Shown: in pieces, positions 4,224 to 62,285 of the stretch
Layout: each line of letters begins with the position of its first letter
Numbering within the stretch: the stretch's first letter is position 1
DNA from: Thermoplasmata archaeon
GTDB lineage: Archaea > Thermoplasmatota > Penumbrarchaeia > JAEHCK01
Direction: 5' to 3'
NCBI GenBank assembly: GCA_020696345.1
Contig: JAEHCK010000011.1
Coordinates: forward strand, 213-64,212
Length of the DNA stretch: 64,000 bases
Program-made: the position numbers and the translations under genes
The notes under the pieces: generated by a model
Told to the model about the DNA's origin: nothing
Seen by the model: the letters and a program-made list of their open reading frames with translations, nothing else
Databases searched by the model: none

Positions 4224-4378
4224 AGGATAGGCAAATGTGAGTGTGAGAAATTTAAATCTTTCGGTTACAACATTATTGCTGAGTTATGCAGGCATATATG
4301 GGTTTTTGTTGGGCCAGCAATAATAGGATAGAAGGGATATATTATTGCTTGAAAGTTTTATGAGTCTAGGGTCTTAAG

Positions 4379-4800: not shown

Positions 4801-4889
4801 CCCTGGACTCTTGACTCCAATTCAACATTCATTAAACGAAATTTATTTACACATCATCAACTATTAAGAATGCATAAATAGGTGTTTAT

Positions 4890-6035: not shown

Positions 6036-6318
6036 CGGGGAATTATTGATTGAATATCGCTGGGGACATTTGAAATTGGAAATTTTAAATTGTAAAATGC
6101 AAAATAACGGTTTTGTTCCGCGGTTTAGTTTGTCGGTGGCGAGATTTCCCCTACCAAAAATTTTATATTTGCTCAAACCTAATGATATCTATTCTCATTT
6201 GCAATTCGAGGCTAATAATATTCTCTGAAACAATGATGAACTTCATTATCAAGAGACTGGGGTAAATCAGTAATTCATTTTAAATTATACCTTATTGTTG
6301 GAAAACGGGTCGGTAATC

Positions 6319-14655: not shown

Positions 14656-14718
14656 TTTGGTACTTGGAGCTTAATTTTGCATTTTAAAATTTACAATTTC
14701 AAATTTCCAATATCCTCA

Positions 14719-28396: not shown

Positions 28397-29157
28397 ATCG
28401 TGATGAACTGAAAAGACACATCGGAATAACCGGTTACTCGTTGGGACAAGTGGAAAAAGATTATTTTCAGCATATGATTCTTGGTGCATTATCAAGAAGA
28501 GCTGGTGGAGGGTTGGTGTTCAAGGGAGGCACAGCATTACAAAAACTTGGTATTATACCCCGGTTCAGTGAAGACTTGGACTTCACTGCACGATATGATC
28601 CAAAGATACAAAAGTTAAAAGATTATATTTTAAGGGTTATCCATAATTATAATTTCTTGGCCGAGGCAAACAATTTTATTGACGATGAGAGAACAGCTGG
28701 TTTTCGAATTAAGATACAGGGTCCACTCTTTCGCAACAGACAAGGATTATGTACTATCAGAATAGAGATTAGCAAAAGAGAGTCAGTGATATCAATCCCT
28801 GAAAATAAAGAATTCAATCCACCATATCTTGATATACTGCCATATTCTTTGAATATCATGCATAAGGAAGAAATTCTTGCTGAAAAGATTCGTGCAATTT
28901 ATTCTAGGCATAAGGCACGAGACCTTTATGATATTTACAAACTCTTAGAGATAGGAACAATTTACAATATCGATCTAGCTAATGAAAAATTGGATTATTA
29001 CAATCTTCAATTCGATACTGGATCATTCATAGAAAATTGTGAGAAATTAAAACCAGATTGGGAGCGGGACCTACAAAGCTTAATGCAAAATATCGTACCA
29101 TATAATAATGTCTTGAATGTTATTAAGGAAAGACTTTTGAAAGATCAGAAACTATAA
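28393..29157 (+). CDS. abiEii: AbiEii/AbiGii-family nucleotidyltransferase toxin (DUF1814-like)
   Basis: Motifs EKDYFQHMILGAL, LVFKGGTALQKL and RFSEDLDF are typical of this family. 254 aa. Confidence 0.82.
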   Translation: MNRDELKRHIGITGYSLGQVEKDYFQHMILGALSRRAGGGLVFKGGTALQKLGIIPRFSEDLDFTARYDPKIQKLKDYILRVIHNYNFLAEANNFIDDERTAGFRIKIQGPLFRNRQGLCTIRIEISKRESVISIPENKEFNPPYLDILPYSLNIMHKEEILAEKIRAIYSRHKARDLYDIYKLLEIGTIYNIDLANEKLDYYNLQFDTGSFIENCEKLKPDWERDLQSLMQNIVPYNNVLNVIKERLLKDQKL

Positions 29158-37642: not shown

Positions 37643-38093
37643 CCCAAGATCCCCCAGACCTGTTTCCTGTAATGGAAATGTTTGGTAATAGACATGGATT
37701 GATAATAAGATGTTGTTTCATGTAAAGTTGTGAAAGGGTTATTGTAATAAGTAATAATAAAGATTTTCTTAACCGGGTAAGAGTTCTAGGGCGGCTTCCC
37801 ATAAAGCAATAAATATTTATAGCAATAGAACAATAGAGGTGCGGAAAACTACAGAACAGATGACCTTCTATACACCCTAAACTTTTTAAAAAGCACTATC
37901 AACCCCCCCTATTGGTGTATCGAAGTTGGTGAAGAGAGGATTGGAAAATAAGGATGTTCGATGATTTATTGGTTCTACTTCAAAAAAAAGATCTAAAAAC
38001 GCCCACACTTTTTTTTATATAAATCATCACATCCTTTTTTCCTGCATTTTTGCGTTTTGATTGGATAGAATAATAATTTTAGATCAATGAGAT

Positions 38094-38326
38094 GGTCGAC
38101 TGTTAGACCGAGTGACAGGGGTCTGGGGCCGGAAACAGTTGCTAGATGTTAGTTGCTAGTTGCCAGTTTAATAATATCACACTAGAAACTAGAAGCTAGC
38201 AACTGATAACTAACGGGGTCGGGGTGAGAACAAGGTACGAGTTTAACGGGAAGAATCAATAAATAAGCACACTGGCAACCGACAACTGATTACTGACAAC
38301 TAGTATGGACGGTAGACCATCTAACA
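38094..38326. repeat. MITE-like mosaic element (GTTGCTAG/CTAGCAAC words), long copy
   Basis: Shares GGTCGAC..GGAAACAGTTGCTAGATGYTAGTTGC..CAGTTTAATA..ATCACACTAGAAACTAGAA and CTGACAACTAGTATGGMCGGTRGAC with 61371-61484. Carries about 110 extra internal nt. Outer 10-bp pair CAGTTGCTAG/CTAGCAACTG. Confidence 0.7.
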
Positions 38327-47222: not shown

Positions 47223-47375
47223 ACAGTTGCTAGGTTCTAGTTGCTAGTTGCTAGTACTACTTTGTTAGCTGAAGAATTTAATGAATAATAGACGGTCGAC
47301 CAGTCAGCTGGTCGATCTGTCAGCTAGTCACCCAGTTGACCGGTATACTGTTAGACCAGTAAACGAGCAGACCGG
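47223..47375. repeat. Mosaic intergenic repeat: GTTGCTAG words, conserved 30-mer, GACCAG/CTGGTC words
   Basis: 47223-47285 parallels 42724-42780. 47256-47375 parallels the reverse complement of 17961-18100. Confidence 0.8.
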
Positions 47376-47585: not shown

Positions 47586-48164
47586 ATGATAGTTGCCTTG
47601 ACTGGTACCCCCGGCACCGGTAAGTCCACTGTGAGTAAACAACTGGTCGACGATAGATATTCTGTTCTTCCCATCAATGAGATCGCAAAAGAGCGCAAAC
47701 TGTTATTGGACTATGACTCCGACCGACAAACATACGAGGCCGATATTGACGGTTTGAACAAATATTTGACTAGATATATAAGCGAGCTAAATGCACAACA
47801 TAATAACGAGCCTGCACCCGAGCCGCAAGATACCATATTTCTCGAAGGCCATCTGGCACATCACCTGGACATGCCGGAGATCGTAATTATTTTGCGCTGC
47901 CACCCAACAGTGCTAACGCAGCGGTTATCGGCGAAGGGCTGGTCGGAGAATAAGATACGTGAAAACCTCGAGGCTGAGGCAGTTGACGTGATCTTGATCG
48001 AATGTATGAATAGATACGATGAAGATAAAATATTTGAGATCGATACCACTAGTGAAAAACCAAGTGAAAGTGTCAAGAGAATAGTAGAAATATTAAGCGG
48101 TTCCTCCAAACAATATCAACCTGGAAAGATCGACTGGTCAGAGGAGATATTAAAATGGTATTGA
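47586..48164 (+). CDS. Fap7/AK6-like adenylate kinase-type NTPase
   Basis: N-terminal P-loop MIVALTGTPGTGKSTVSKQL. 192 aa, typical of the archaeal AK6/Fap7 family. Confidence 0.78.
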   Translation: MIVALTGTPGTGKSTVSKQLVDDRYSVLPINEIAKERKLLLDYDSDRQTYEADIDGLNKYLTRYISELNAQHNNEPAPEPQDTIFLEGHLAHHLDMPEIVIILRCHPTVLTQRLSAKGWSENKIRENLEAEAVDVILIECMNRYDEDKIFEIDTTSEKPSESVKRIVEILSGSSKQYQPGKIDWSEEILKWY

Positions 48165-48880
48165 ATAAGTACAGGTCATTTGCCGATAAGATCTTGGACC
48201 CCGTTGCCAGGGCATTTTCCGGCCTCAGTCCGGATACTCTCTCTGCCGTGTCTTTGGTTTTTGCATTCATAGCATGTATCGCATTTATATTCGCCCATGA
48301 GGTGAATTATGAGAGTATGTTTAGCCCGGGGTATTATGTATATTATATGTTTGCCATAGCCAGTGTATGTATATTTCTTAACGGTTTTCTCGATGCGATC
48401 GACGGCAAAGTGGCGCGGTTAACTAATACTATCTCGAAACGCGGCGATTTTTTGGATCATGTATTCGACAGATATTCAGATATCCTGATCCTGGGCGGTA
48501 TCATGATAAGCGCATATTGTGATGTGCTGATCGGTGCGTTGGCGATCATTGCAGTTCTCATGACAAGTTATATGGGTACACAGGCACAGGCACTGGGGTG
48601 TGGTAGGAATTACGGCGGCATATTGGGCAGGGCCGACAGATTGGTAATTCTGATGATCGCACCATTGGCGCAGATGCTGGTACTTTATTATTTCCCGTCA
48701 GGCCGATTGCCTTTTATTTATATCAATAATTTTACTCTCATTGAATGGGTCATGATCTGGTTCATTATTGCAGGTAATCTAACTGCTGTTCATCGTGGAA
48801 TTCGTAGCTGGAATGAGTTGCGGGGCCAAGAACCAACAAAAAAAGGTATAATTAAACATAAAATTAAAGGCAAACATTAA
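48155..48880 (+). CDS. CDP-alcohol phosphatidyltransferase family protein
   Basis: DAIDGKVARLTNTISKRGDFLDHVFDRYSD fits D-x2-D-G-x2-A-R...G-x3-D-x3-D. Polytopic. Overlaps the upstream gene by 10 nt. Confidence 0.85.
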   Translation: MVLNKYRSFADKILDPVARAFSGLSPDTLSAVSLVFAFIACIAFIFAHEVNYESMFSPGYYVYYMFAIASVCIFLNGFLDAIDGKVARLTNTISKRGDFLDHVFDRYSDILILGGIMISAYCDVLIGALAIIAVLMTSYMGTQAQALGCGRNYGGILGRADRLVILMIAPLAQMLVLYYFPSGRLPFIYINNFTLIEWVMIWFIIAGNLTAVHRGIRSWNELRGQEPTKKGIIKHKIKGKH

Positions 48881-49073
48881 CATTGGGTTTGGATAGAGGG
48901 TTGAAATATCATCGTCAAAACCCTCTTTCCTCTAACGATTCATATCACCAATTCTACACAGTGTCCTCTTCCCTCTTTCCTGTTTGAAATAATAGCTAAT
49001 TATAATAATTATTGGTTGGATCAACTTGGATAGTTATTCTATGCGAAGCGTTCCACAACATTTAAATAATCGT

Positions 49074-49103
49074 GTAAAAAGTGTTCCAATCTTTATTTTA
49101 ATA
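49074..49103 (+). promoter_or_regulatory. Shared box AAAAAGTGTTCCAAT plus TATA-like TTTATTTTA
   Basis: 15-nt identity with 53286-53300. Located about 45-70 nt upstream of ATG 49145. Confidence 0.35.
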
Positions 49104-49144
49104 CTAACGATCATTTTTTTATTAATTAATTTGAGGTGACTGAC

Positions 49145-52100
49145 ATGCGGCGTACAGTTTCTGTTATTGTTGTGATCTTTTTATTATTGGGTGGATTTAT
49201 ATTACCGATATCTTTCGACTTGACTTCGCAAGATGCATCGGCAGAGGATTGGTATATGTCCATAGATGTGGATACCACCTGGAACACGGATATGGCCATC
49301 AAACAGGATATTTATATTAGCGCTGGCAAAACATTAACGATAGACCCGGGCGTTACAATTCTATTCGACGGAGCATTCAGTTTAATTGTAAATAGCACGG
49401 GCAAGTTGGTAGCGAACGGTGGCCAAACACAACCGATAACCTTTGACCGAACAGGAGGCAGTAAATGGGCAGGACTGGAAGTTCTTAATAATGCCAGGTC
49501 CGAGCTTGACTGGTGCACGTTTAATAATGCAAATAATGGGATCATTTTACAAAATAATCAATTTTATACCAACATCACGAACAGCTCATTCTCTAATTGT
49601 ATACAATATTTAAATATTAAAACTTCAAAGGTCAATATAACCAGCACGAAGTTTGAAGGTAAAGCATTTGATAAAAACCCAAACCAGATCCTGGGCAAGA
49701 TCGACATGGACAGCACCTCTGAAATATATATCCAGTATTTTGTTAACATATATACGGTGAACGGTTCGTCAGATCTGACCATGCGGGCGCGGATGACGTA
49801 CCCGGTTTCGAATGTGAACGTGGACCTAGATAATTTTGTTCAGGACCGGCTATTCGGTACCACGGGTTCTAATGGTACCGTTTCGAACATGCGTGCAACT
49901 TCATTGAAGATCAATGGCTCGGCAAAAACCCGTGATTATCAATTTAGTATTTATAAAATGGAAGTGTCCGATAAGTGGGACAGCACAATGCGTGAGGCCT
50001 TTGGAATTTCTCGTAATTCTACGAATTTTAATTTATCTTCAATAGTGAATCAATCATTTTCGGGTGATGATCTTGAAGTCGATTCAAATCTTCATATTAA
50101 TGCATTCTTCATGTTCAAATATCCACCTGTGATCACCTCAGCTTCAAATAGGGTGACCGTTTACGAGGATGCTCCAAAAACAGACAGTTTCATATTCTTT
50201 GATAATGATGACGATTCCGATCTCGAAAGTAATATCACTATTAATATTACCGACCAGCACGGGAAAACAATATATAGTGATGAGCCGAATACAACAGACA
50301 CATGGATCAGCTGGTATAATGAAACAGAAGAGTTAATTTTCTACAGGACCATCGAATCACCCGACACACCGGCTGGCCCGGGGGATTACAAGGCCAAAGT
50401 AGATGAGACCATTTACGTAACAATAACAGACCTATTGGGCCAGAAGGCAGAACACAGCATAATAATCGAGTATCATAATGTTCCGGACAAGCCGATGATC
50501 ACCGGGATACCGGTAACCATACCAGTGGTCGAGGATCAGGTGAAATATATCCCGATCTCGGTCTCCGATAACGATAACGGTACTGCCGACATATATATCT
50601 CAAGCAATAGTGAATATGTGAAATATGTCTACAATGATACCAATGACCAGAGTTTATATTTCAAGTTCCCGAACGAGTTTGGTGCGGACGGGTCACAACA
50701 GTTGGTGAACATCTCGGCAACCGATAACTGCTCGGATGAGGTTACATATAATTTTAATGTGCTGTTCAGCCAAACTCCCGACCGGCCGAAGATCATTGGC
50801 ACGATCCCGAACAAGATCGGTACGGAAACCGACTGGACCCCGGAGCTTGTATTGAATGATTATTGGTTCGACCCCGACCCAGATGATAACGCGAACACTT
50901 TGGATTGGTATGTGTCGGGTGTGAATGCCAAATACTTTGAGGTCTTCGGTGCGAACCAAACGGCCGTTTCACCGTTAAGCTTCAATTACATCTATGATAT
51001 TGATCTGGGTGGTGCCCGAAGCCAGGGTCAGATCGTGGATGATGTCACGATCTGGCTTGAGGATAAGGACGGGTTGAAAGTACATCAAAATATTAAATTG
51101 ATAGTGACCGGAACAAACCAGCAACCAAGCCTGCACAAGGTCAAGATCAATAATACCCAATTTTCGGTACAGCCGGAAGCCGGTGATAATGACCAAACAT
51201 ACAAGTTCATGATCGAATACAAGGACCGCGACGGTTTAAAAGGTGATGCACCCGAGCATGTCAGGGTAATTATCGATAGCGAGCAGCATGATATGCTCGA
51301 ACAAAACCCTGATGACGAAGATCATATCGATGGCAAGTTATATTATTACGAAACCAAGCTGAGTATCGGCACGCACCAGCATTATTTCGTATGCTCCGAC
51401 AGCGCTCTCTCTTCTCGTCAGCCCAAACTGGACGACGATCCGAACATAATATCGTTGCCAGTAGTGAGCTCAAAGATCAATATCGGTAAATTCAAAAGTA
51501 ATGACGGCAATTTCATAGCGAAAATAGCGTATACCGGTAATAAAGGCAGTGCATCGATCACGATTACGGCTACGGATGTTGTTTCTGTGCCTGCGGCCGC
51601 ATACGAGGAGCGCAAGGGCGATATCGGTGTATATTTCGTGATCAAAACCCAAAATATGAGCTCGATCATCTGGGTGGATATTTCGGTCAAGTTTGGTTCC
51701 GGGTTTGACAATTATGGTTCTCGTTGGTTGAAGAAGGACGATATGGATTTGGCTTATCTGGAGAATACCACCTGGCAGCCGTTGATACAGGAATCGAACA
51801 TGTTTCTTGAAGATGATATGAATATGCTGGGATGTAATTTCACGCGCACGAACATTTTAAGCGCTTTACTCATCGATAACAACACGGCCATGTTCACGGT
51901 GATCGGCTGGCTGGATGCGGATAGCGATGGGTATTTCAATGACGAGGATGATTTTCCGTTCGACACCGCAGCCAGTGAAGATAGGGACACCGACGGCTCA
52001 CCCGATAAATGGAACCCTGGAAAAAACCAAAAAGACTCCACAACAGAACCGAAGTTACACCTGGACAAGTTCCCAGACGACCCCGCAGCCAGCCTGGATG

Positions 52101-53041
52101 ATGACGAAGACGGCTATCCGGACGCATGGAACCCCGGTATGGGCTATAATGATTCCACATCGGACCCCAAACTGAACCTGGATATATGGCCCGGCGACCC
52201 GGAAATGAGTTTGGATACAGATCGCGACGGTTATGCCGATGGCGATAAATTGAACACGAAACCATGGATGGACCGTGATGACGACAACGATGGCATGCCC
52301 GATGCATGGGAGATCAAGTGGCTGGAATATGCCATCGAACATAATATATCCTATCATTTTAACCCCAAGGATCGGACCGATGGTGCGTATGACTGGGATT
52401 CGGACGGGCGCAATAATACCAAGGAGTATCTGGAAAACACCAATCCGTTCAAAAAAGATACGCCAAAGAAAGATGAAGGTATGCTTTCGGGTTCGGCAGG
52501 TTGGGCGGCTGTGATCGCCATGGTGGTGATCATCGTTATTTTAATACTTTTCATGTACACCAAAATGCATCGTGACCAGCTGCTGGAGCACAAGGTACGG
52601 GCGAAGATCCTGGACTATATTAACGGGCACCCGGGCACACATTACCGCAAGATCTTGAGCGAGCTGGACATGCAGATGGGCACATTGACCCATCACCTGA
52701 ACATGCTCGAACGGCAGAAATATATCAAATCACTCCAGGACAGCATGTACCGACGGTTCTATCCGGTGGGGACGCCCATTAAAACCGGCTTGTTATTGAC
52801 CGAGGTTCAAGAGCGCATTTTGGGCACAATGAAAAAAAGCCCCGGCATGTCACAGGCCGAGATCGCGCGCAGGCTTAACGTGGCACGTAAGGTGGTGAAT
52901 TATCATATGAAGATACTCTCGGATGCGGACTTTGCGCGTGTGGAGTTGGTGGGGCGGGCGAGCAGGTGTTATTACCTGGATGGCCTGGAGTTTCCGAAAA
53001 AACCCAAACCCACTATGCTCAGAGGAAGACGTGCTGCATAA
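49145..53041 (+). CDS. Receptor-like giant membrane protein: beta-helix / cadherin-like ectodomain, TSP3 stalk, TM, cytoplasmic tandem winged-helix HTH
   Basis: GAGGTGA lies 7 nt before ATG 49145 (the ORF track starts at GTG 49136). Signal anchor VSVIVVIFLLLGGFILPI. TSP3-like DADSDGYFNDEDD, DRDTDGSPD, DDDEDGYPDAW, DTDRDGYADGD, DDDNDGMPDAWE. TM AAVIAMVVIIVILILFMY. wHTH 1 HYRKILSELDMQMGTLTHHLNMLERQKYIKS. wHTH 2 MSQAEIARRLNVARKVVNYHMKILSDADF. Confidence 0.85.
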   Translation: MRRTVSVIVVIFLLLGGFILPISFDLTSQDASAEDWYMSIDVDTTWNTDMAIKQDIYISAGKTLTIDPGVTILFDGAFSLIVNSTGKLVANGGQTQPITFDRTGGSKWAGLEVLNNARSELDWCTFNNANNGIILQNNQFYTNITNSSFSNCIQYLNIKTSKVNITSTKFEGKAFDKNPNQILGKIDMDSTSEIYIQYFVNIYTVNGSSDLTMRARMTYPVSNVNVDLDNFVQDRLFGTTGSNGTVSNMRATSLKINGSAKTRDYQFSIYKMEVSDKWDSTMREAFGISRNSTNFNLSSIVNQSFSGDDLEVDSNLHINAFFMFKYPPVITSASNRVTVYEDAPKTDSFIFFDNDDDSDLESNITINITDQHGKTIYSDEPNTTDTWISWYNETEELIFYRTIESPDTPAGPGDYKAKVDETIYVTITDLLGQKAEHSIIIEYHNVPDKPMITGIPVTIPVVEDQVKYIPISVSDNDNGTADIYISSNSEYVKYVYNDTNDQSLYFKFPNEFGADGSQQLVNISATDNCSDEVTYNFNVLFSQTPDRPKIIGTIPNKIGTETDWTPELVLNDYWFDPDPDDNANTLDWYVSGVNAKYFEVFGANQTAVSPLSFNYIYDIDLGGARSQGQIVDDVTIWLEDKDGLKVHQNIKLIVTGTNQQPSLHKVKINNTQFSVQPEAGDNDQTYKFMIEYKDRDGLKGDAPEHVRVIIDSEQHDMLEQNPDDEDHIDGKLYYYETKLSIGTHQHYFVCSDSALSSRQPKLDDDPNIISLPVVSSKINIGKFKSNDGNFIAKIAYTGNKGSASITITATDVVSVPAAAYEERKGDIGVYFVIKTQNMSSIIWVDISVKFGSGFDNYGSRWLKKDDMDLAYLENTTWQPLIQESNMFLEDDMNMLGCNFTRTNILSALLIDNNTAMFTVIGWLDADSDGYFNDEDDFPFDTAASEDRDTDGSPDKWNPGKNQKDSTTEPKLHLDKFPDDPAASLDDDEDGYPDAWNPGMGYNDSTSDPKLNLDIWPGDPEMSLDTDRDGYADGDKLNTKPWMDRDDDNDGMPDAWEIKWLEYAIEHNISYHFNPKDRTDGAYDWDSDGRNNTKEYLENTNPFKKDTPKKDEGMLSGSAGWAAVIAMVVIIVILILFMYTKMHRDQLLEHKVRAKILDYINGHPGTHYRKILSELDMQMGTLTHHLNMLERQKYIKSLQDSMYRRFYPVGTPIKTGLLLTEVQERILGTMKKSPGMSQAEIARRLNVARKVVNYHMKILSDADFARVELVGRASRCYYLDGLEFPKKPKPTMLRGRRAA

Positions 53042-53282
53042 AAGCGATTTTTTATCGTTGAGTATAGCTAATTGCTGCTAAAATGTGTGTGAGTTATGGG
53101 GGTTATGGGAGTTACGGGAGTTTAAGAATTATTGGTATTTGGAGCATTGGAGCTTAATTTTCAAATTTACAATTTCAAATTTCCAATGACCCAAGCACTA
53201 TATTATCAAACCACGATCCATAATTCTATCAATATTAATAGATCTTTGATCACCGCTTTGTTCCAATATGCTTATATAATTG

Positions 53283-53314
53283 TCAAAAAAGTGTTCCAAT
53301 ATTTACTTTTATAG
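53283..53314 (+). promoter_or_regulatory. Shared box AAAAAGTGTTCCAAT plus TATA-like TTTACTTTTATA
   Basis: Same 15-mer as at 49076-49090. Located about 65-90 nt upstream of ATG 53378. A second GTTCCAAT lies at about 53261. Confidence 0.35.
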
Positions 53315-53377
53315 GGGAGAGCATATTTTTTAATAACCTGAATTGGAAACCTGAGTTTCCGATCAAGGAGGGTTAAT

Positions 53378-54520
53378 ATGGTGAAAAGTATAAAAAAAGT
53401 GAAAAAAAACAAGAAACGGATGAATAAAATATTGTACCTGATCGTGGGGTTGGTGATCGGGATCTTTATCTTCACGGCGGGCACCATGGCCATGATGGTC
53501 AAAGACGAGATCAAGGAGAAAGACCCAGGGCCGCCGCCAGAGCCTGTCAATGAAGCACACCTGTTCGTGGAGGATGTCTACTTTATGATGGACGGCAGTA
53601 GAGCGGCTGTTGATGGAGACGGAATTGAAAGAGTGGATATAATTACCACCGTATATATCACAAATGACGGTCTTGCCGAGGCAAAGAATGTGAAGATCAC
53701 TGCCTGGCCAATGGATGAGGACAAGAACATGGGCAAGGATAAAGTTGATGAGACCGTGGGAATAATACCCATCCAAAAGACATCGGAGATCGAGCTTACC
53801 ATCAGAGTACCGCCCGGTGCACGGCATAATGTTGATTTCCTGATCTTCGAGCGCGATCTATTGATCCTTCGCGGCAGCGGCTCGGTGGTGACCGAGGGTA
53901 CATTTAAAAATACACCCAAATACCAGACCAATGAGGTCAAAGGCACGGTGAACGATACCGACTACGACGGCATACCCGATGACTGGGAGCGGTACTACGG
54001 CTTGGACCCGAACGACCTAAACGATGCACACGATGATCCGGATGGGGACGGCGTGAGTAATCTGGAGGAGTATCGTGCTAACACGGAACCGAGAGATCCA
54101 AAAGTTGGTGGTTGTGAAAGTGATGATGATAAAGAAGAAAAAGGATTATCAAGCCTTGATAATGGGGCAGTAGTCGGTGGTCTGGGCATATTTATTGCAA
54201 TAATTGTCATAATCATCATCATTATTGCAGTATTTGCATCATCAAAGCATGAGCATCATAACAAGGTCAACAATAATCCCCAAGCATATACAAACCAATA
54301 TACACCGCCGAGCATATTGAATGTACAGCCAGGCCAAGTCATACCTAAACGCTGCTCACGGTGCGGTGGCTGGGTGGTGAACGATGCTTGCACACTCTGC
54401 GGCAGTAGATATCCACCAGCAACCACACCAACTGCTCCAGAGCCACAAATAGTTTCTGAAACAGAGGATGTTTCTGATACCAAAGAAGAAAATGCCGAGT
54501 GGGAAAGTGATCAGAAATAA
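53378..54520 (+). CDS. Receptor-like membrane protein: CARDB-like domain, TSP3 stalk, TM, cytoplasmic zinc ribbon
   Basis: AGGAGGG SD. Signal anchor ILYLIVGLVIGIFIFTAGTMAMM. DTDYDGIPDDWE, DPDGDGVSNLEEY. ESDDDKEEKGLSSLD. TM GLGIFIAIIVIIIIIIAVF. CSRCGG...CTLCG. Confidence 0.8.
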   Translation: MVKSIKKVKKNKKRMNKILYLIVGLVIGIFIFTAGTMAMMVKDEIKEKDPGPPPEPVNEAHLFVEDVYFMMDGSRAAVDGDGIERVDIITTVYITNDGLAEAKNVKITAWPMDEDKNMGKDKVDETVGIIPIQKTSEIELTIRVPPGARHNVDFLIFERDLLILRGSGSVVTEGTFKNTPKYQTNEVKGTVNDTDYDGIPDDWERYYGLDPNDLNDAHDDPDGDGVSNLEEYRANTEPRDPKVGGCESDDDKEEKGLSSLDNGAVVGGLGIFIAIIVIIIIIIAVFASSKHEHHNKVNNNPQAYTNQYTPPSILNVQPGQVIPKRCSRCGGWVVNDACTLCGSRYPPATTPTAPEPQIVSETEDVSDTKEENAEWESDQK

Positions 54521-54773
54521 TTATTTATTTATCGCAAATGCTTATAGGTGAAATATAATGATAATAAAAATGCCTAAATTAAGGATGAAGGATGTGTACG
54601 CTCACAGATAGGGATGCAGGACTCGCATACTCGGTTCCCTCGCTTGAGGGTTTCGGGTCTTGTCAATAAGCTTTCAACCCGCCTCCCGCATTCCAAATCC
54701 CGCATCCCTAACGACATTATCATAATTCAAATAATGAAAAGAAATTTATAAAACATTTCATTGGTGTTCATAA

Positions 54774-55745
54774 ATGATATCAAACTACAAGATCATTCAA
54801 AGAAATTTAACTATCGTTCTAGTTTTAATCCTTATCTTAGTTTGCTCCATTGTACCTGTACAAGCTCAACAGGATTCAGATACCGACAGCATGCCGGACA
54901 GCTGGGAGACTACCAACGGTCTGGATGCTAATAATTCTGCCGATGCAGATAATGACACCGACGCCGACGGGTTGACCAATAAAGAAGAATACGATAATGG
55001 CACCGACCCGAACGATCCGGATACCGACGGTGACGGCATGCCCGATGGCTGGGAGGTACAATACGGTCTTGATCCAAATGATGAAACCGATGTTGAAGAG
55101 GATCCGGATAAAGATGGATTTAATAACTTAGATGAATATAAAAGAAATGGAGATCCAAAAGATCCAAGAAAACCGGCTGGTGGTGCTGAGTCTGATGATG
55201 ATAAAGAAGAAAAAGGAATGAGTTCTTTAGACACCAGCCCTTTCTGTCTCTTGCTTTTAATCCCCGGAATCGTCATACTGCTCGTCATCATATTCGTGTA
55301 TACCAAGATGCGCCGCGAACGGCTCCTGGAGCATAAGGTACGGGGTGATATATTCGCCCATATCAACAAAAACCCCGGCGTGCACTACCGCGGCATCATG
55401 AACGAGTTGGGCCTGCACATGGGCACGCTCACACATCACCTGAACATGCTCGAGACACAGCGGTACATAAAATCGTACCAGGACGGCATGTACCGCCGGT
55501 TCTACCCCATCGATCACAAGATCGGCACTGGCCTGATACTCACCGAAATTCAGCACAAGATCTTGCAAGCCATACACGATAGCCCGGGGCTGTCGCAGGT
55601 GGAGATCGCGGGTAAAGTAAACCAGAACCGCAAGATCGTGCACTACCATGTGAAATTGCTCTCCGATGCCGGGTTCGTGCATGTGGAGCAGGCCGGCCGC
55701 GAGAGCAGGTGCTATTATGCAGGTGGGTTGAGAATGGGGGGATAA
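54774..55745 (+). CDS. Short receptor-like membrane protein: TSP3 stalk only, TM, cytoplasmic tandem winged-helix HTH (paralog of the 49145..53041 C-terminus)
   Basis: Signal peptide LTIVLVLILILVCSIVPVQA. DSDTDSMPDSWE, DNDTDADGLTNKEEY, DPDTDGDGMPDGWE. ESDDDKEEKGMSSLD. TM LLLLIPGIVILLVIIFVY. wHTH HYRGIMNELGLHMGTLTHHLNMLETQRYIKS and LSQVEIAGKVNQNRKIVHYHVKLLSDAGF. Confidence 0.85.
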   Translation: MISNYKIIQRNLTIVLVLILILVCSIVPVQAQQDSDTDSMPDSWETTNGLDANNSADADNDTDADGLTNKEEYDNGTDPNDPDTDGDGMPDGWEVQYGLDPNDETDVEEDPDKDGFNNLDEYKRNGDPKDPRKPAGGAESDDDKEEKGMSSLDTSPFCLLLLIPGIVILLVIIFVYTKMRRERLLEHKVRGDIFAHINKNPGVHYRGIMNELGLHMGTLTHHLNMLETQRYIKSYQDGMYRRFYPIDHKIGTGLILTEIQHKILQAIHDSPGLSQVEIAGKVNQNRKIVHYHVKLLSDAGFVHVEQAGRESRCYYAGGLRMGG

Positions 55746-55746
55746 T

Positions 55747-56124
55747 TTGATGAATTGATGCTTAACAGAAGCCAGGTTGGGTTGATGTTGAACAGAAACC
55801 AGGCTTAATTAATACTGAACAGAAGCCAAGCTGAGTTGATGTTGAATAGAAACCAGGTTGAGTTGACGCTGAACAGAAGCCTGGTTGAGTTGATGTTGAA
55901 CAGAAACCGGCTTCTGTCAATCAACAATGAATCAAGGTTTCTGTCAATCAACAATGAATCAAGGTTTCTGTCAATCAACAATTAATCCCGGCTTCTGTCA
56001 ATCAACAATTAATCCCGGCTTCTATCAATCAACAATGAATCTCGGCTTCTATCAATCAACAATGAATCATGGCTACTGTCAATCAATAACTCATCACGGC
56101 TACTGCCAATCAACAAATCTACAT
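55747..56124. repeat. Two abutting tandem arrays of exactly 27-bp units: 6 A-type units (55747-55908), then 8 B-type units (55909-56124)
   Basis: No indels across 14 units. A units end ACAGAAGCC or ACAGAAACC in strict alternation. B units start with the exact reverse complements GGCTTCTGT or GGTTTCTGT. Confidence 0.9.
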
Positions 56125-56245
56125 ATTATCAATTAATTCAATCTCCATTGTGCTTAAGATCGTAGATGAGGCATAATTATTAATAATGTAAAAAAATTCC
56201 ATCTCAACGATTTACGATAGATAACCATACAATTAGGTGAGATAA

Positions 56246-56842
56246 ATGCCGCGTAAAAATAAAAATAAAAGTAAAAGCACAAGTAAAAAATCCAAGAAAT
56301 CGGATGAAAAACCTAAATTCAAATTCGTATGCCAGAAGTGTGGTAAGTGTTGCGAAACTGAGACCATATTCATCTCGATCTCCGACCTGGAGCGTTGGGT
56401 GAATGATCAGACCATCTATCGTGTAATGCACAGGTTAGAACTACAAGAGATCGAGGGAAACTATAAACTGGTATTGATACATGATGATGATGGAAAATGT
56501 AATTTATACAATCGTGATAATAAAATGTGTATGATCTATGACACGCGGCCGGTTATGTGTCGTTCTTACCCGTTGGGATTTAACGGGCAAGAATATTTTG
56601 TAAAGAACAATAAATGTAAAGGACTTAACAAAGAGGATATGACCAAGCAGCAGCTGGATACCATACGCAACCACGCTTTTGAGGAGCATATCGCCCATCG
56701 TCAAATGGATCGTGTACTTCCATTACTTTACAGCCTGATCTTTAACAAATTGATCAAGGACTCACAAGCGTTTATGAACAAGCTTGCAGATCCGGATGAA
56801 GAAACCAAAGACACCGTAACTAGCGATGAAAAAACTAAGTAA
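56246..56842 (+). CDS. YkgJ-family (CxxCxxCC) cysteine-cluster protein with a basic N-terminal tail
   Basis: FVCQKCGKCCE plus distal cysteines (GKCNLY, CMIY, CRSYP). AGGTGA SD. Confidence 0.72.
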   Translation: MPRKNKNKSKSTSKKSKKSDEKPKFKFVCQKCGKCCETETIFISISDLERWVNDQTIYRVMHRLELQEIEGNYKLVLIHDDDGKCNLYNRDNKMCMIYDTRPVMCRSYPLGFNGQEYFVKNNKCKGLNKEDMTKQQLDTIRNHAFEEHIAHRQMDRVLPLLYSLIFNKLIKDSQAFMNKLADPDEETKDTVTSDEKTK

Positions 56843-56926
56843 ATTACTTGTCCATACCAAATTTTTTTACAAAAAGTATTTATGTAATAGTGAGTTAGGA
56901 TTTTAACTGACCTTGGGAGAGATACA

Positions 56927-57220
56927 GTGGTAGAAAAATTCAGCAGCAGAGTAATCCGACTGGGTGAATATTTACGCATAGCGATTCCGCTTGAGATCGC
57001 CAATACTGTTAATTTGGCTGATCAAACACCAGTTAATATATTTATTAACGACCAAGGAAACATTGAGATCGAGCTCCAAGAGTCTGATGCGCCAAATGCT
57101 ATGTGTGCAATATGCGGTATTTATGCTGCCAGAAAAAAATGTATCAACTGCGGTCGAATTGTGTGTTCGAAATGTTTCTGGGCCTTCGGCAGTCTTTGTA
57201 AGAAATGCGCAAGAAAATAA
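56927..57220 (+). CDS. AbrB/SpoVT-like domain plus C-terminal zinc-ribbon protein
   Basis: RVIRLGEYLRIAIPLEIANTVNL, then CAICG...CINCG..CSKC...CKKC. GTG start. Confidence 0.55.
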   Translation: MVEKFSSRVIRLGEYLRIAIPLEIANTVNLADQTPVNIFINDQGNIEIELQESDAPNAMCAICGIYAARKKCINCGRIVCSKCFWAFGSLCKKCARK

Positions 57221-57313
57221 TTTCATAGTTTTTTTTATGTTGAGATGTAATGAATCGAAATCCTTAATATCAATAAATCATATTTCCCCGCAACGAACTC
57301 GGGAGGTTTAGCA

Positions 57314-57487
57314 ATGCCAGCAGTTATTAACGCGGAAAAATGTGACGGATGCGGTACCTGCGTAGACGAATGTCCGGTAGAGTGCATTACACTTAACGAA
57401 CATGCAAAGGTTGACGCCGATGAATGCACCGAATGCGGCTCATGCGTAGAAGTATGCCCAAACGACGCGATCACCTTAGATGATTAA
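57314..57487 (+). CDS. 2x[4Fe-4S] ferredoxin, 57 aa (below the ORF-track cutoff)
   Basis: [57 protein letters not shown]. Two CxxCxxCxxxCP motifs. GGGAGG SD 7 nt upstream. Confidence 0.85.
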
Positions 57488-57664
57488 AATCAAGTTTGAT
57501 CTTAATAGAAAACCTCGAATGCCGAGGATTTGTTAGTTTTATTAATTACAAACGCTATTGGGTAATTATTATTAGAACCTTTATTTGCGATTAAAGAATT
57601 CTTACCCAGGCAAAAGTGATCAGAACTTTTAACTTTTCAATTTTAACTTTTAAAATTTTACTTT

Positions 57665-59668
57665 TCAATTCTTTTTTCGTTTTGTATGATAAAAATAAAC
57701 AACCATGGCGCCAGCCAGGATCAGTATTAGCACAACTGAGAGCATGACCGGTGACGCACCCACCTCATCTTTTCTCCGCGGTTTATTCTGTGTGGCAAGC
57801 TCCATGAAGTGTTCAAGCGAGGTCTGTACACCGTTTATCGCACGTACCTTAAGGGTATGATCACCGTTCTCGAGGCCAGTGGTATCAAGTTCATACGTCC
57901 AATTTAGATAGATACCATTCACTTCTTTTGTTTTGACCTTCTTCCAGCTGCCATTATCCACTGCAATTTCTATGGCCTCGATCTCAATGCCAGTTTTCGA
58001 GAACGCTACACCACCAATAGTAGTGGTGCCAGTAGTAATGTTTTCCACTCCCATTTCGAGCTCTGTGATGAAGCATTGAAGATTTACATCTATTATATCC
58101 ACATCAGTAATGCTGGCGCTGACCATAACTGCTTTGTAAGCATCCACCGCACCCCAGCCAAAATCCTTGTTCCAGAACGGGTCAAGTTCGGGTATTGTTG
58201 CCTTGCCGCGGCGCTCGGCTGTAAGGTGAAGGATCTCCTTAATTACTTCACTGGTAAGTTTTGGATTAGCCTCGAGCATCATTGCACATATTCCAGCTAC
58301 TACCGGTGTTGCATACGATGTACCGCTTCCGCGGCTGCCGTAGCCGTTCCCCGAACCATCACCGATCGGGTCGAACTGTACCTGCATGATATGGGTCCCC
58401 GGTGCGGTAATATCCGGCTTCAACTCGTTATACGGGTTGCCGTCGTTGTTATCGTGTCTTGGCCCGCGGCTCGAGTATTCGGCTATTATATCATCGGACC
58501 GGTCGATGGTGTCCAGGTCATCTGACGCCGCCACAGAGATACCGTTGGAGGCCGCAGAAAATCCGCGAAAACCATCATTGTTCGGCCCTGAATTACCTGC
58601 AGCATGGCACACGATCACACCGGTATCCGCGAGCCGGTCCAGCGCAGCCGAGTATGCATCAGAACCGTCCGACGGGCTGTCAGTATCAATGCCCCAGGAC
58701 AGTGAGAGTATATCAATACCTTTATTCTCGGGATCCGCTCCAGCCCATGAGTCATCTTTGTGTTTAATGATCCACTCGATGCCTTCCAGAGAAGCATCCA
58801 GGAACTTGACCGGCATCGGTCCCTCACCTGGTGCGTAACCGAACACCGTGCCTATTCGTACATCAACCACCTTAGCCTCCGGCGCCGCACCCATGTATTT
58901 CCCCTCGGGTGCGCCCGTACCAATGGCGATACCCGTGCATGTGGTCCCGTGGCCGTTGGTATCATCAGCGTCAAAGGTGCCATCTTGAAATATACCTAAG
59001 GGATCAGGTTTGCTGATATCAGCCCCGCCAACCCATTTACCTGTCAGGCTCGGGTGGGCATTATCCACACCCGTGTCCATTACCGCAATATTGACGCCTA
59101 GACCCTGATACCCAAGCTCCCAGGCGGTGAACGGCGAGTATTCATTTGACTCGCGTGCCTTCACCGCGGGCGTGGCGATATCCGAGTACAGTACCGGCCT
59201 GCCGGGGTTCTCCACACGCAGGACGCCGGGCAGTCCAGCGATGGTCCCTATTATTGGCACGGGTACAGCGAGCAATGAAACCATATCCAGGTACCAGAAG
59301 ATGTTGCCGATCTCCACACCAAGGTCGCGTAATGTGGTAATGTCATCTTGGGTTAGTCTATCTTTGAACATCACTATTGTATCCAACCGTTGGTAACCCT
59401 TATGGATCCAGGTGTCAAGATCATCCGAGATCTTGTTGTTATTCCGATCACGTGTTGATATTAATGGTGTAGTGGTTTCATCTTGGTTGTACCTGTCCAT
59501 GCAGCCATTGCTTGTGGGTGCATGGTCGGTTGTATTCTCCGTTAGATCGATGGTAACTTCACGGCTGCGGGCGGGGATGGTAAAAAATACCGAATTGATC
59601 GGCAGTAAAATTAATAATACCAGACACGCTGCGGCAATCTGTTGGGTGATCTTGACCTCAGTCCTCAT
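57665..59668 (-). CDS. Membrane-anchored subtilisin-like (S8) serine protease
   Basis: Signal anchor. I9-like propeptide. Catalytic Asp (AVMDTGVDNAHPSL), His (NGHGTTCTGIA), Ser (GSGTSYATPVVAG). Ig-like domain. C-terminal TM (VMLSVVLILILAGAMVVYFY). Confidence 0.9.
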   Translation of the reverse strand: MRTEVKITQQIAAACLVLLILLPINSVFFTIPARSREVTIDLTENTTDHAPTSNGCMDRYNQDETTTPLISTRDRNNNKISDDLDTWIHKGYQRLDTIVMFKDRLTQDDITTLRDLGVEIGNIFWYLDMVSLLAVPVPIIGTIAGLPGVLRVENPGRPVLYSDIATPAVKARESNEYSPFTAWELGYQGLGVNIAVMDTGVDNAHPSLTGKWVGGADISKPDPLGIFQDGTFDADDTNGHGTTCTGIAIGTGAPEGKYMGAAPEAKVVDVRIGTVFGYAPGEGPMPVKFLDASLEGIEWIIKHKDDSWAGADPENKGIDILSLSWGIDTDSPSDGSDAYSAALDRLADTGVIVCHAAGNSGPNNDGFRGFSAASNGISVAASDDLDTIDRSDDIIAEYSSRGPRHDNNDGNPYNELKPDITAPGTHIMQVQFDPIGDGSGNGYGSRGSGTSYATPVVAGICAMMLEANPKLTSEVIKEILHLTAERRGKATIPELDPFWNKDFGWGAVDAYKAVMVSASITDVDIIDVNLQCFITELEMGVENITTGTTTIGGVAFSKTGIEIEAIEIAVDNGSWKKVKTKEVNGIYLNWTYELDTTGLENGDHTLKVRAINGVQTSLEHFMELATQNKPRRKDEVGASPVMLSVVLILILAGAMVVYFYHTKRKKN

Positions 59669-59735
59669 CTAGTTGGATAATTTGTATGATGACCTATAAA
59701 TGTTTTGGGTGAATTAAGAATTTTATTTTATTTCA

Positions 59736-60611
59736 TCAAACCCATTGGATGAATACGAAAAGAAGGGCCACCCTGATCATGATCGTCCCAACTACGTAGA
59801 AAAAATAACCCATATAATTATATTTCTTTTTCTGGAAACTACACAAACCAAAAATAAGCACACCAAATATAATTCCCAGAATAAAGATCCCATAGAAATT
59901 AAATGTTAGATATTTTGTCCATTGCATTATTAATAGGTATATGAAAGGTAAAAGATAGAAGATAAAACACAAAAGTGCACCTCTCTTTTTCCCAAAAATT
60001 ATTGGAATTGTTTTAATGTCCGATTGTTTGTCTCCCTCTACATCTGAAAAGTCTTTACATAATGCAATGAACACTTCATGCGTAAATAAGAAAAGTATTA
60101 GCCATATGGGAATTGCAGTTATGGGTTTGTACACTCCCCAACCGACCAGAAACATCAAAATGCCATAGCCTATACCTATCACTACTGTGCTGAAGAATAT
60201 ATTGGCTTTCGCATATATTTGGGGTAAAGTGTATATTCCACCAATTGCCAAACCGGCTATGGCAATTAGTAAATAGTCAAACCCCAGATATATTGTAAGA
60301 AGGCCAGCACATAATGATAGAGAAAAAGAAATAATAAAAACCTGTTTTTTTGTTAATTTTTTTGAAGGGATCGGCCTGTCGGGTTTATTTATCCGGTCTA
60401 TTTCCACATCGAAGATCTGGTTTAACGAGTTGATGCTGGCAAGACCCAAAATACAAAAAAGGATCGCGATGGACAATCGAGGTATATTGGAATTTGGCAT
60501 TCCATTACTGGCAAAACTGGCTGCAAGAAAGACAAAAACTACACCGAGAAATATATCCTCGAGTTTGAACAGCTGGTGTAGAAAATGTATCTTTTTTGCA
60601 ATTGTACCCAT
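59736..60611 (-). CDS. UbiA-family prenyltransferase
   Basis: NQIFDVEIDRINKPDRPIPS (NxxxDxxxD) and KDFSDVEGDK. 8-9 TM helices. AT-rich. Confidence 0.85.
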   Translation of the reverse strand: MGTIAKKIHFLHQLFKLEDIFLGVVFVFLAASFASNGMPNSNIPRLSIAILFCILGLASINSLNQIFDVEIDRINKPDRPIPSKKLTKKQVFIISFSLSLCAGLLTIYLGFDYLLIAIAGLAIGGIYTLPQIYAKANIFFSTVVIGIGYGILMFLVGWGVYKPITAIPIWLILFLFTHEVFIALCKDFSDVEGDKQSDIKTIPIIFGKKRGALLCFIFYLLPFIYLLIMQWTKYLTFNFYGIFILGIIFGVLIFGLCSFQKKKYNYMGYFFYVVGTIMIRVALLFVFIQWV

Positions 60612-60612
60612 A

Positions 60613-61257
60613 TCACACCTTGCCTACCAAGACTGAACAATATTGAAATAAAAAACGTTTTTCTTCGATTATTTGAATACCTGACCGGGTTAGAAGTTTT
60701 TCCAGATCATGTATCTTGTGGTATCTAAGCCCAGTTGTCAAATAAAAGAACGTGAAAACCGGCATTCTGAATAAGGATATTAATCCGGATAAAACAGCAT
60801 TAGCAGGTTTTAATTCATCAGCAATAAGTAAGTATCCACCTGGCTTTAGGTAAGATCTCGCCTTTTTCAATACAGTCTCAACAGAATCTTCGTCAGGAAA
60901 CACATTTAAAAAATATACTAATGTCACATAATCGAATTTTTCTTTTAGATCAAAAGAAAAAAGGTCCTCTTGATAAAAAGTCACATTTTTGATATTATTA
61001 TGTTTGGCATTTTTTTTAGCATTTCCAATCATTTTTTTTGATACATCCAATCCAATAACTTTTGAGACCTTTTTTGCACATGATATTGCAAAGTCACCAT
61101 TGCCACAACCAATATCTAATACTGATCGGTTTTTATCAATTTTTTCCAGAAGATAATTTTTTGTCTTTACGGTTTGATAAATAGAGATCATGTCTGTAAA
61201 TTGATCATAAATGGCTGAGATCGGATCATGGTTGTATTTCAGAGATACACCCACCAA
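60613..61257 (-). CDS. Class I SAM-dependent methyltransferase (UbiE/MenG-like)
   Basis: Motif I VLDIGCGNGDF, motif post-I GLDVS. 1-nt gap to the UbiA gene. TTG start as given in the ORF track. Confidence 0.78.
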   Translation of the reverse strand: MVGVSLKYNHDPISAIYDQFTDMISIYQTVKTKNYLLEKIDKNRSVLDIGCGNGDFAISCAKKVSKVIGLDVSKKMIGNAKKNAKHNNIKNVTFYQEDLFSFDLKEKFDYVTLVYFLNVFPDEDSVETVLKKARSYLKPGGYLLIADELKPANAVLSGLISLFRMPVFTFFYLTTGLRYHKIHDLEKLLTRSGIQIIEEKRFLFQYCSVLVGKV

Positions 61258-61370
61258 GTGAAATAGTTATAATTATATCAATTTTTTAATGAAAAATAAT
61301 TAGTCAATATAAATGAGATAATGATATGTAAGATTAATGGTTGATACGATGTATAGCTGGATGTAGAGTT

Positions 61371-61484
61371 GGTCGACTTGTCGGAAACAGTTGCTAGATG
61401 CTAGTTGCCAGTTGCCAGTTTAATATAATCACACTAGAAACTAGAAACTAGAAACTGACAACTAGTATGGCCGGTGGACTATCT
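61371..61484. repeat. MITE-like mosaic element (GTTGCTAG/CTAGCAAC words), short copy
   Basis: Collinear with both ends of 38094-38326 (see that entry). Confidence 0.7.
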
Positions 61485-61553: not shown

Positions 61554-61688
61554 ATGGTAAGATATTGTGGTTTTGATTGCGAATATGCTGAACCATGTGA
61601 CGATGTGCCCAGTTGCATGACTTTTAATCCTATTCATTGTAGATTGAAGAATAAAATGGTAGCTAAAGGTATGATCTGTGATAGCTGA
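61554..61688 (+). CDS. Hypothetical Cys-rich mini-protein (44 aa; 48 aa if started at ATG 61542)
   Basis: MVRYCGFDCEYAEPCDDVPSCMTFNPIHCRLKNKMVAKGMICDS. Six Cys. Open frame only. Confidence 0.3.
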   Translation: MVRYCGFDCEYAEPCDDVPSCMTFNPIHCRLKNKMVAKGMICDS

Positions 61689-61719: not shown

Positions 61720-61956
61720 TTAATGGGATGTTGATGGATCGTGGCCGTGATGTGTTATTGATGGGCAGATGCCTTGATTCATTGTCGATTGAACGAAAGG
61801 TAGTTGTGATAGTAAATCAACGGATCTTCCTAGCATTAATTCATTTCGGTATCTACTCAGCACCAACCCAGCACGGCATCTATTCAGCATCAACCCATCC
61901 AAGTATCTGTTCAGCATAAATTCATCACGGTATCTGTTCAATATCAATTCATTCAT
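61720..61956. repeat. Second, inverted copy of the 27-bp A/B tandem-array element
   Basis: Read on the minus strand: 5 A-type units (61822-61956, phased exactly every 27 nt), one degenerate unit, then 2-3 B-type units. The B end aligns with 56044-56124 at roughly 75 percent identity by eye. Confidence 0.85.
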
Positions 61957-62039
61957 GCCACTGCTCACCATTAAATGAACACTGCCTCTAAAACAAACCA
62001 TTATATATGCGGTTCAAAATTCTGTTTTTTGGAATTATT

Positions 62040-62285
62040 ATGGCAACACAGGATGATACCGTCAAAATTGCGATCAAAAAACGTCTTGCACTGAAACTTC
62101 GCCGCCGTCTCAAAGAGACCGACTTCAAAACGTTATCCGAATATGTGAATTTCATACTTGCAGAGGTTGTTTCAAGCCTGGAAGAGCAGGATCAAGCTGA
62201 CGAGGCAGAGGTAGAGCCTGAGTACAGCAGAGAAGAAGAGGAAAAGGTGAAAGCGCGTTTGAGGGACCTGGGGTACTTGGATTGA
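62040..62285 (+). CDS. Ribbon-helix-helix (CopG-like) DNA-binding protein with an acidic C-terminal region
   Basis: VKIAIKKRLALKLRRRLKETDFKTLSEYVNFILAEVV, then an acidic linker and RLRDLGYLD. Start probably ATG 62040 (the tracked ORF starts at 62007). Confidence 0.62.
   Translation: MATQDDTVKIAIKKRLALKLRRRLKETDFKTLSEYVNFILAEVVSSLEEQDQADEAEVEPEYSREEEEKVKARLRDLGYLD

Follow-up and report, generated by a model that had tools for sequence, protein, structure and literature searches.

Non-coding satellite families are rare in prokaryotes: in a survey of 261 prokaryotic genomes, Methanocella conradii was the only archaeal case for long units, and inverted arrangements are not mentioned (Subirana & Messeguer 2019, PMC6749651). 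Here we describe a candidate of this kind in a 64,000-nucleotide stretch of the Thermoplasmata archaeon contig JAEHCK010000011.1 (hereafter the window), where 27-bp units at positions 55747-56124 form two abutting blocks of opposite orientation (locus 1), together with a second, more decayed copy of this composite (locus 2). With about as much doubt as confidence, we read locus 1 as a non-coding minisatellite of 27-bp units that is specific to its lineage and changes orientation once along its length, its two arms having been homogenised separately. The closest documented kind is the prokaryotic non-coding satellite family, for example in M. conradii and Leptospira interrogans, which shares with our loci the constant head-to-tail intergenic units, the presence of more than one related locus, the non-coding character and a presumed origin in replication slippage (PMC6749651). 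Unlike these satellites, the arrays described here consist of facing blocks of one ancestral unit, their units are imperfect (76-89% matches), and the arrays, although non-coding, have a unit length divisible by three.

The repeats of the Borg elements of Methanoperedens offer a further comparison, as they are archaeal, intergenic, fast-evolving and assembly-breaking and may start in the end of a gene; an RNA role has been proposed for them, likewise without proof (PMC9879509). Borg repeats are perfect, strongly A-biased and unidirectional, and they reside on giant extrachromosomal elements (PMC9879509). In contrast, the 27-bp arrays are imperfect, contain 33-34% A, run in both directions and are chromosomal. 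Among shorter dispersed elements, BIME/REPIN, pneumococcal BOX and archaeal miniature inverted-repeat transposable elements (MITEs) are intergenic, dyad-symmetric and present in several copies per genome, and BOX carries a tandemly repeated internal module (boxB). Our locus differs from them in that its arms consist wholly of 27-bp tandem units, two copies are known, and no terminal repeat or target duplication can be defined; nor did the 64-kb window show a transposase partner such as a RAYT (REP-associated tyrosine transposase). Finally, arrays of protein-binding sites include sopC of the F plasmid (twelve 43-bp units), parC of R1 (11-bp units, 5+5), the heptads of the ribbon-helix-helix (RHH) protein omega of pSM19035, and the heptads upstream of ctxAB bound by ToxR, a membrane-anchored winged-helix protein that binds tandem repeats. 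By analogy with such iteron-, operator- or centromere-like arrays, the 27-bp units could represent many phased copies of a site, sometimes in both orientations, near promoters and genes of DNA-binding proteins. Unlike in those systems, there are no partition or replication genes nearby, and the array is not conserved with its candidate binder in relatives.

Anatomy of locus 1 and of a second copy

Locus 1 comprises an A block of six units (55747-55908, plus strand; consensus AGGTTGAGTTGATGCTGAACAGAAGCC; mean pairwise unit identity 0.78) followed by a B block of eight units (55909-56124, plus strand; consensus GGCTTCTGTCAATCAACAATGAATCAC; mean pairwise unit identity 0.81), the B unit being approximately the reverse complement of the A unit. 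The first-pass annotation had described six A and eight B units of 27 bp without any indel, and this arrangement was borne out by Tandem Repeats Finder (TRF), by repeat finding, in which the start-to-start spacing was exactly 27 everywhere, and by a print of the sequence in unit register: 14 consecutive units with zero indels. TRF called the A side at period 27 (55751-55905, 5.7 copies, 76% matches, 0 indels) and again at period 54 (55753-55913), and the B side at period 27 (55908-56116, 7.7 copies, 89% matches, 0 indels); the scores of the three calls were 184, 231 and 285. Base identity at lag 27 was 0.789 as compared with 0.263 +/- 0.023 (maximum 0.35) in 1000 shuffles, and it was 0.27 at lag 26 and 0.26 at lag 28.

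The two blocks differ in their internal order. From one A unit to the next, the end switches between AGCC and AACC; the resulting 54-bp super-period is supported by the higher identity at lag 54 than at lag 27 (0.81 vs 0.75) and by the 88% identity among even units as against 75% between odd and even ones. This super-period, also proposed earlier, is confined to the A block. Unit A4 ends in ATAGAAACC and not in ACAGAAACC. The B block has no 54-bp order because adjacent B units are the most alike: neighbours are nearly identical, with a single base difference within each of the pairs B1/B2 and B3/B4, and the terminal units B7 and B8 have decayed. The conserved core motifs of the units are TTGATGCTGAACAGA and CAATCAACAAT. 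The B units had been said to start with exact complements of the A ends. This is true of B1-B4 and fails for B5 and B6 (GGCTTCTAT), B7 (GGCTACTGT) and B8 (GGCTACTGC). Since the 9-mer ACAGAARCC is carried by five of the six A units and its complement by four of the eight B units, the term "exact reverse complements" is valid for the core units only. This 9-mer occurs 10 times in the window where 0.7 occurrences are expected (14-fold), and nine of the ten lie within locus 1. Over the whole unit, the A consensus matches the reverse-complemented B consensus at 17 of 27 positions, and A units share on average ~63% identity with reverse-complemented B units; the averages within the arms are 78% and 81%. 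A hairpin folded about the A/B junction contains 103 Watson-Crick pairs out of 162.

The array does not begin sharply. A degenerate "unit 0" (55720-55746, plus strand), detected by repeat finding as a copy spanning 55724-55800 with 61% identity and visible in the register print, covers the end codons and the stop codon (TAA, 55743-55745) of the gene upstream (54774-55745), which encodes a membrane protein with winged helix-turn-helix (wHTH) domains. The protein ends in ...CYYAGGLRMGG*, whereas six orthologues extend 15-20 residues beyond the conserved GGL. With the decayed unit 0 providing the final codons and stop, the array edge seems to have taken the place of 12-15 codons at the end of the wHTH gene.

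Both edges of locus 1 are confirmed by an independent short-read assembly of the same strain (run SRR26538805). One contig (L001, window 50549-55810) stops at 55810 and differs from the window at 2 of 5262 nt, and another (L208, window 56076-61439) begins at 56076 and has 0 mismatches in 5364 nt, i.e. 2 mismatches in 10.6 kb for the two combined. The window assembly is the sole basis for the interior (55811-56075), and hence for the exact count of 14 units. We observed that contig ends of SRR26538805 fall inside tandem arrays, both in the 27-bp blocks and in a heptad element at 61388-61465, and therefore these repeats fragment assemblies of this lineage.

Searches with unit profiles revealed a second A+B composite on the minus strand at 61730-61987, which the first-pass annotation did not contain. 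Its A-type block (61848-61987, minus strand) holds approximately 5-6 units of 27 bp (consensus GTGATGAATTGATGCTGAGCAGATACC) and was found by nhmmer with the locus-1 A model at E values from 6e-10 to 1e-3; TRF reported 61832-61952 at period 27 with 0 indels. The remainder (61730-61847, minus strand) consists of a scrambled junction and three B-type units, matched by the B model at E 3e-8. The local alignment between the two loci is confined to the arrays (55782-56007 vs 61947-61729) and excludes the flanks. Locus 2 is situated 5.6 kb from locus 1 in the opposite orientation, flanked by a 44-codon Cys-rich open reading frame (ORF; 61554-61688) on one side and, just downstream of the A-type block, by a small gene (62007 or 62040 to 62285) on the other. 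With respect to the downstream gene, the element points one way at locus 1 and the other way at locus 2. The small gene had been labelled as an RHH protein, for which Pfam gives no confirmation; an exact look-up of this RHH-like protein found it not to be on record. The outer two B-type units of locus 2 are closer to B7/B8 of locus 1 than to the interior B units (GGCATCTGCCCATCAATAACACATCAC vs GGCTACTGTCAATCAATAACTCATCAC). This similarity indicates positional homology and makes the A-then-B architecture older than the duplication and the interior of locus 1 the product of later homogenisation or expansion.

Non-coding character and turnover among relatives

One frame of the B block is open (55927-56136, plus strand) and would encode MNQGFCQST nonapeptide repeats. 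The existence of this ORF, pointed out earlier, is confirmed in the ORF list, and we judged it to be non-coding. The differences between units number 2, 11 and 12 at codon positions 1, 2 and 3, amounting to 5 synonymous and 20 non-synonymous changes. Its peptide had no match at E<=10 among 5.8 billion proteins and no match in Pfam. The matching frame of the A block contains a TAA stop in A3 at locus 1, as read from the units, and is open in locus 2. Because about 65% of the frames through a 27-nt unit are open by chance, an open frame over the B block is unsurprising. The suggested role as a repeat-peptide gene thus finds no support, as the ORF is not conserved, lacks a codon-position signature and has no homologue.

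The array is absent from distant relatives. No homologous array was found upstream of the orthologues of the downstream CxxCxxCC gene (L006-L012, ~52-58% protein identity), nor at the syntenic sites of the clusters with orthologues of the wHTH gene (L205-L207), of which L207 and L205 have conserved synteny. A close relative (L013) is 92-95% identical in coding sequence and retains 114 of 121 positions of the promoter spacer; its contig begins inside the array, leaving 38 nt of array visible, and in no other strain does a contig cover an array in full. In these terminal units, 32 of 46 alignment columns match (~70%), and a 10-nt deletion breaks the 27-nt phase. The third-codon positions of the adjacent gene are 92.4% identical in the same comparison. 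The array edge therefore changes faster than third-codon positions, while the promoter is conserved. Because the arrays are absent in relatives of ~55% identity and change fast in a close one, they are, on these sequence comparisons, young. The first-pass annotation had regarded free variation in unit number and phase, including indels that are not multiples of 27, as the mark of neutral satellite DNA; the 10-nt indel and the ~70% identity of the terminal units in L013 agree with this in part.

Wider scans returned no further copy. A 20-mer of the B unit, searched against one genome per species, gave four single chance-level matches in unrelated organisms. Three patterns searched in viral contigs found no array; the degenerate A-core pattern among them gave 13 isolated single matches, which were taken as chance and not read singly. 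A loose metagenome pattern (CAATCAA at three positions spaced by 27 bp) returned at least 120 stretches; those listed were unrelated, and none of them matched the hidden Markov models of the units. One relative (L006, ~54% protein identity) carries at 3381-3482 an array of 3.9 copies of a 26-nt unit with a 52-nt super-period, ~230 nt upstream of a giant wHTH gene, with an inverted partner unit ~150 nt away at 3585-3616. In layout this arrangement is comparable in kind to the 27-bp locus, and its unit looks alike superficially, but the similarity of these units to those of the window is not significant (nhmmer E 0.86), and we do not claim homology.

Proposed history and competing explanations

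The loci show the constant head-to-tail units, the lack of coding constraint and the presence at more than one related locus that characterise a minisatellite. Under this reading, a single ancestral tandem array would have expanded via replication slippage or unequal exchange, followed by an orientation switch inside the array through inversion or inverted duplication. Each arm would then have evolved in concert separately, as homogenisation acts only between direct repeats, which would account for the 78-81% identity within arms as compared with ~63% between them. The youngest units would be those in the interior, where B1/B2 and B3/B4 are one base apart, with unit 0, B7 and B8 decaying at the edges; such a gradient of unit similarity with decayed edges is typical of slippage. 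Lastly, a single copying event would have placed the whole composite in opposite orientation at a site 5.6 kb away, and this second copy would now be decaying. We infer this history of inversion and concerted evolution, and we likewise infer that the arrays have no sequence-specific function. Any action that they might have would be as DNA, between the end of one gene and the promoter of the next, and cruciform or hairpin formation would be possible at locus 1 only.

Several observations weigh against a purely neutral repeat. The two copies have diverged by ~25-35% and yet retain both the period and the A-then-B order, and the 14 + 6 units contain no indel despite 20-27% unit divergence. Prokaryotic genomes tend to delete useless DNA, and here two copies persist. 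A promoter-like AT-rich stretch follows each locus at a distance of 50-120 nt. In all four blocks, unit positions 9-27 show about half the variation of positions 1-8 (p ~0.007), a test biased by a unit register that had been picked on conserved motifs. Furthermore, the window contains at least two more repeat families in which an array faces an inverted array. Neutral inversions are unlikely to have produced this layout repeatedly and independently, which hints at a common function or a common generating mechanism, e.g. hairpin-templated slippage. In the main rival reading, which we regard as tentative and less likely than a minisatellite, each 27-bp unit would be the site of a sequence-specific DNA-binding protein. 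In this model, the facing blocks would load proteins in opposite orientation, regulating the next promoter or tethering the locus; the upstream membrane-tethered double-wHTH protein and the RHH-like protein beside locus 2 are candidate binders. A unit of 27 bp corresponds to ~2.5 helical turns and 54 bp to ~5 turns. The conserved 19-nt core next to a variable 8-nt segment in both arms of both loci (by the same biased test), the unit phase kept without indels, and the 14-fold enrichment of ACAGAARCC with nine of ten copies in locus 1 count in favour of this model. The arms of locus 2 share AGATRCC/GGYATCT where those of locus 1 have AGAARCC/GGYTTCT (on the B side in a single B-type unit). Both loci lie directly upstream of promoters, DNA-binding proteins are encoded next to the array (Pfam finds two wHTH domains, E 5e-13 and 1e-10), and other repeat families in the window share the facing-array layout. 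However, the orthologous wHTH clusters in L205 and L207 lack the array, which gives no support to a partnership of the array with the adjacent wHTH protein in particular, and locus 2 has no wHTH neighbour. The reversed orientation of the element to the downstream gene between the loci, the terminal units that outpace the third-codon positions of the adjacent gene in L013, and the lack of par or rep genes nearby also speak against a binding platform. A bolder version, in which the facing blocks and the similar elements of the window would be phased multi-site docking platforms for membrane-tethered double-winged-helix proteins, pinning loci to the membrane or gating the adjacent promoter, is speculative and unlikely.

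A role for the arrays as RNA is similarly unlikely. If the arrays were transcribed, for example by extension of the wHTH mRNA at its 3' end or in antisense, they would form a long imperfect hairpin, which might have a stabilising or regulatory effect or be a substrate for processing. Locus 1 indeed folds far better than shuffled sequences on both strands (plus, -116 kcal/mol, z -5.6; minus, -137 kcal/mol, z -8.3; z -3.9 when folded as DNA), and read-through into the array seems plausible as the wHTH gene has no T-rich terminator-like 14-mer. An excess of folding energy is, however, produced by any inverted repeat by construction, and at locus 2 neither strand shows such an excess over shuffles (z -0.11 and -0.20). 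The long imperfect hairpin noted earlier is thus present at locus 1 and lost in its paralogue, which makes a conserved structured RNA less likely. The arms are merely 63-64% complementary and unequal in length (six vs eight units), no Rfam family matched at the gathering threshold, and no archaeal TATA box could be recognised ahead of the arrays by reading the sequence. Slightly less probable still is a mobile palindromic element, MITE-like or REPIN/BOX-like, with arms built of tandem units and with one insertion at the 3' end of the wHTH gene and another elsewhere. This would explain two copies 5.6 kb apart with homology restricted to the element, an imperfect palindrome whose symmetry takes in the flanking GATAAT (55741-55746) and ATTATC (56125-56130), and the tail of the upstream protein that is truncated relative to its orthologues, and a second dispersed palindromic family does exist in the window. 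No target-site duplication is recognisable by eye, though, and no transposase lies nearby; the two known copies are diverged and lie within 64 kb of genome, and no further copy appeared in the one-genome-per-species and viral-contig scans or among the metagenome stretches listed. We give very little credence to a gene for MNQGFCQST nonapeptides or to tandem half-mers of C/D-box-like guide RNAs. One B-block frame is open in both loci, but changes between units are mostly non-synonymous (20 vs 5) and as common at second as at third positions, the A frame of locus 1 is interrupted by a stop, and no homologue exists in the proteins searched. As for guide RNAs, the A-type strand of both loci gave weak matches to small RNA (sRNA) families (sR30, 19.3 bits, E 0.014 in a 500-nt search; snoZ39 and sR20, E above 1), and a 27-nt unit would fit a half-mer geometry of 7+12+4+4. 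Canonical C/D sRNAs have a box C (RUGAUGA) and a box D (CUGA) ~12 nt apart. We rejected an archaeal C/D box sRNA because the sR30 score is about half of the gathering threshold of 38, the boxes in the 12-nt register are non-canonical (AUGUUGA or ACGCUGA, and UUGA), and the canonical boxes in locus 2 (GUGAUGA...CUGA) are separated by a spacer of 7 nt, not ~12.

Two other identities were discarded. A CRISPR array is ruled out, as the units abut without spacers. Archaeal replication origins consist of inverted origin recognition box (ORB) elements around an AT-rich unwinding element, next to orc1/cdc6. At locus 1 the arms abut without an unwinding spacer, the GC skew has no clear switch beyond the change in gene strand, and no Orc1/Cdc6 domain was found by Pfam among the ORFs scanned, the giant surface-protein genes being among those unscanned.

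The window also contains other repeats with facing arms. A dispersed intergenic family, MITE-like or hairpin-like (38090-38322, 61366-61470 and 47225-47255), consists of four to five AGTTGCY heptads, ~20 nt, and three to five inverted CTAGAAA heptads, with arms that are 83-84% complementary and inverted outer ends (GATGGTCGAC... / ...GGTAGACCATC). The 64 kb contain it twice in full and once as a left arm, each time upstream of a plus-strand gene. In addition, arrays of GAGTC heptads or 34-mers face arrays of GACTC units (4354-4402 vs 4781-4817; 196-310 vs 333-363), in the same layout as the 27-bp locus; one pair brackets ~380 nt of the divergent TrkA/Nop5 intergenic region, and the other lies between two tRNA genes.

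Genomic setting and significance

The window represents an archaeal chromosome, as it carries genes for Nop5, pyruvate:ferredoxin oxidoreductase (POR), adenylate kinase (Adk), Trk and succinyl-CoA ligase and two tRNA genes, and homologues of the gene at 54774-55745 are labelled Thermoplasmatota or Thermoplasmata by their sources. Locus 1 is flanked by two plus-strand genes. The upstream gene (54774-55745) encodes a small, predicted secreted or transmembrane protein with a cytoplasmic tail of two winged-helix domains at about residues 185-323 (Pfam HTH_24, E 5e-13; HTH_HVO_0163_N, E 1e-10), and the downstream gene (56246-56842) a CxxCxxCC Fe-S/Zn protein. A paralogue of the winged-helix part forms the C-terminus of the product of 49136-53041. 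Between array and downstream gene lies an AT-rich unique spacer (56125-56245, plus strand) that contains the likely promoter of the CxxCxxCC gene; a TATA-like TTATTAATAAT can be read in it. The neighbours of the locus include the wHTH membrane protein, the CxxCxxCC protein, a Zn-ribbon protein, a ferredoxin, an S8 protease, UbiA and a methyltransferase. The cluster at 47586-55745 is syntenic with L207 180-11047 on a 160-kb contig of a relative and comprises an AAA_18 kinase-like protein, a CDP-alcohol phosphatidyltransferase, a 1301-aa surface protein with a C-terminal transmembrane segment and double wHTH, a DUF7490 protein, and the small transmembrane double-wHTH protein; its winged-helix proteins are membrane-anchored.

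A scan for bacterial promoters and terminators, a method ill-suited to archaea, found nothing. Doublets of a T-rich 14-mer (TTTCAAATTTACAA and variants) stand directly 3' of genes, convergent pairs included (window 6064-6096, 14683-14711, 53159-53187 and 57624-57670; L008 11865-11894; L001 2611-2639), and recur in a relative at ~55% protein identity, making them candidate transcription terminators of this lineage. The wHTH gene before the 27-bp array has no such doublet, unlike several other genes of the window. Elsewhere, 27662-29157 encodes a pair of an AbiEi-like antitoxin and an AbiEii nucleotidyltransferase toxin (Pfam E 4e-7 and 5e-29) on this archaeal chromosome. The long intergenic region upstream of the Nop5 gene (4400-4660) contains a GC-rich segment (gtaggtcccctcggtgtcggcttgcaggagcaccac...) that may be an unannotated structured RNA; it had no Rfam match at the gathering threshold.

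If locus 1 is a minisatellite only, it adds a documented dispersed non-coding satellite family in an archaeal chromosome, with an unusual head-to-head layout that illustrates concerted evolution proceeding separately in each arm. In practical terms, such arrays are break points of short-read assemblies in this lineage, and one of them has seemingly clipped the C-terminal tail of a regulator gene. If instead the docking-platform model were true, the facing arrays would define a class of archaeal cis-element that is new and has one-component membrane regulators as its partners, and binding of protein to the units would point to an unexplored mode of gene regulation or DNA tethering in Thermoplasmatota, via membrane-anchored winged-helix proteins.

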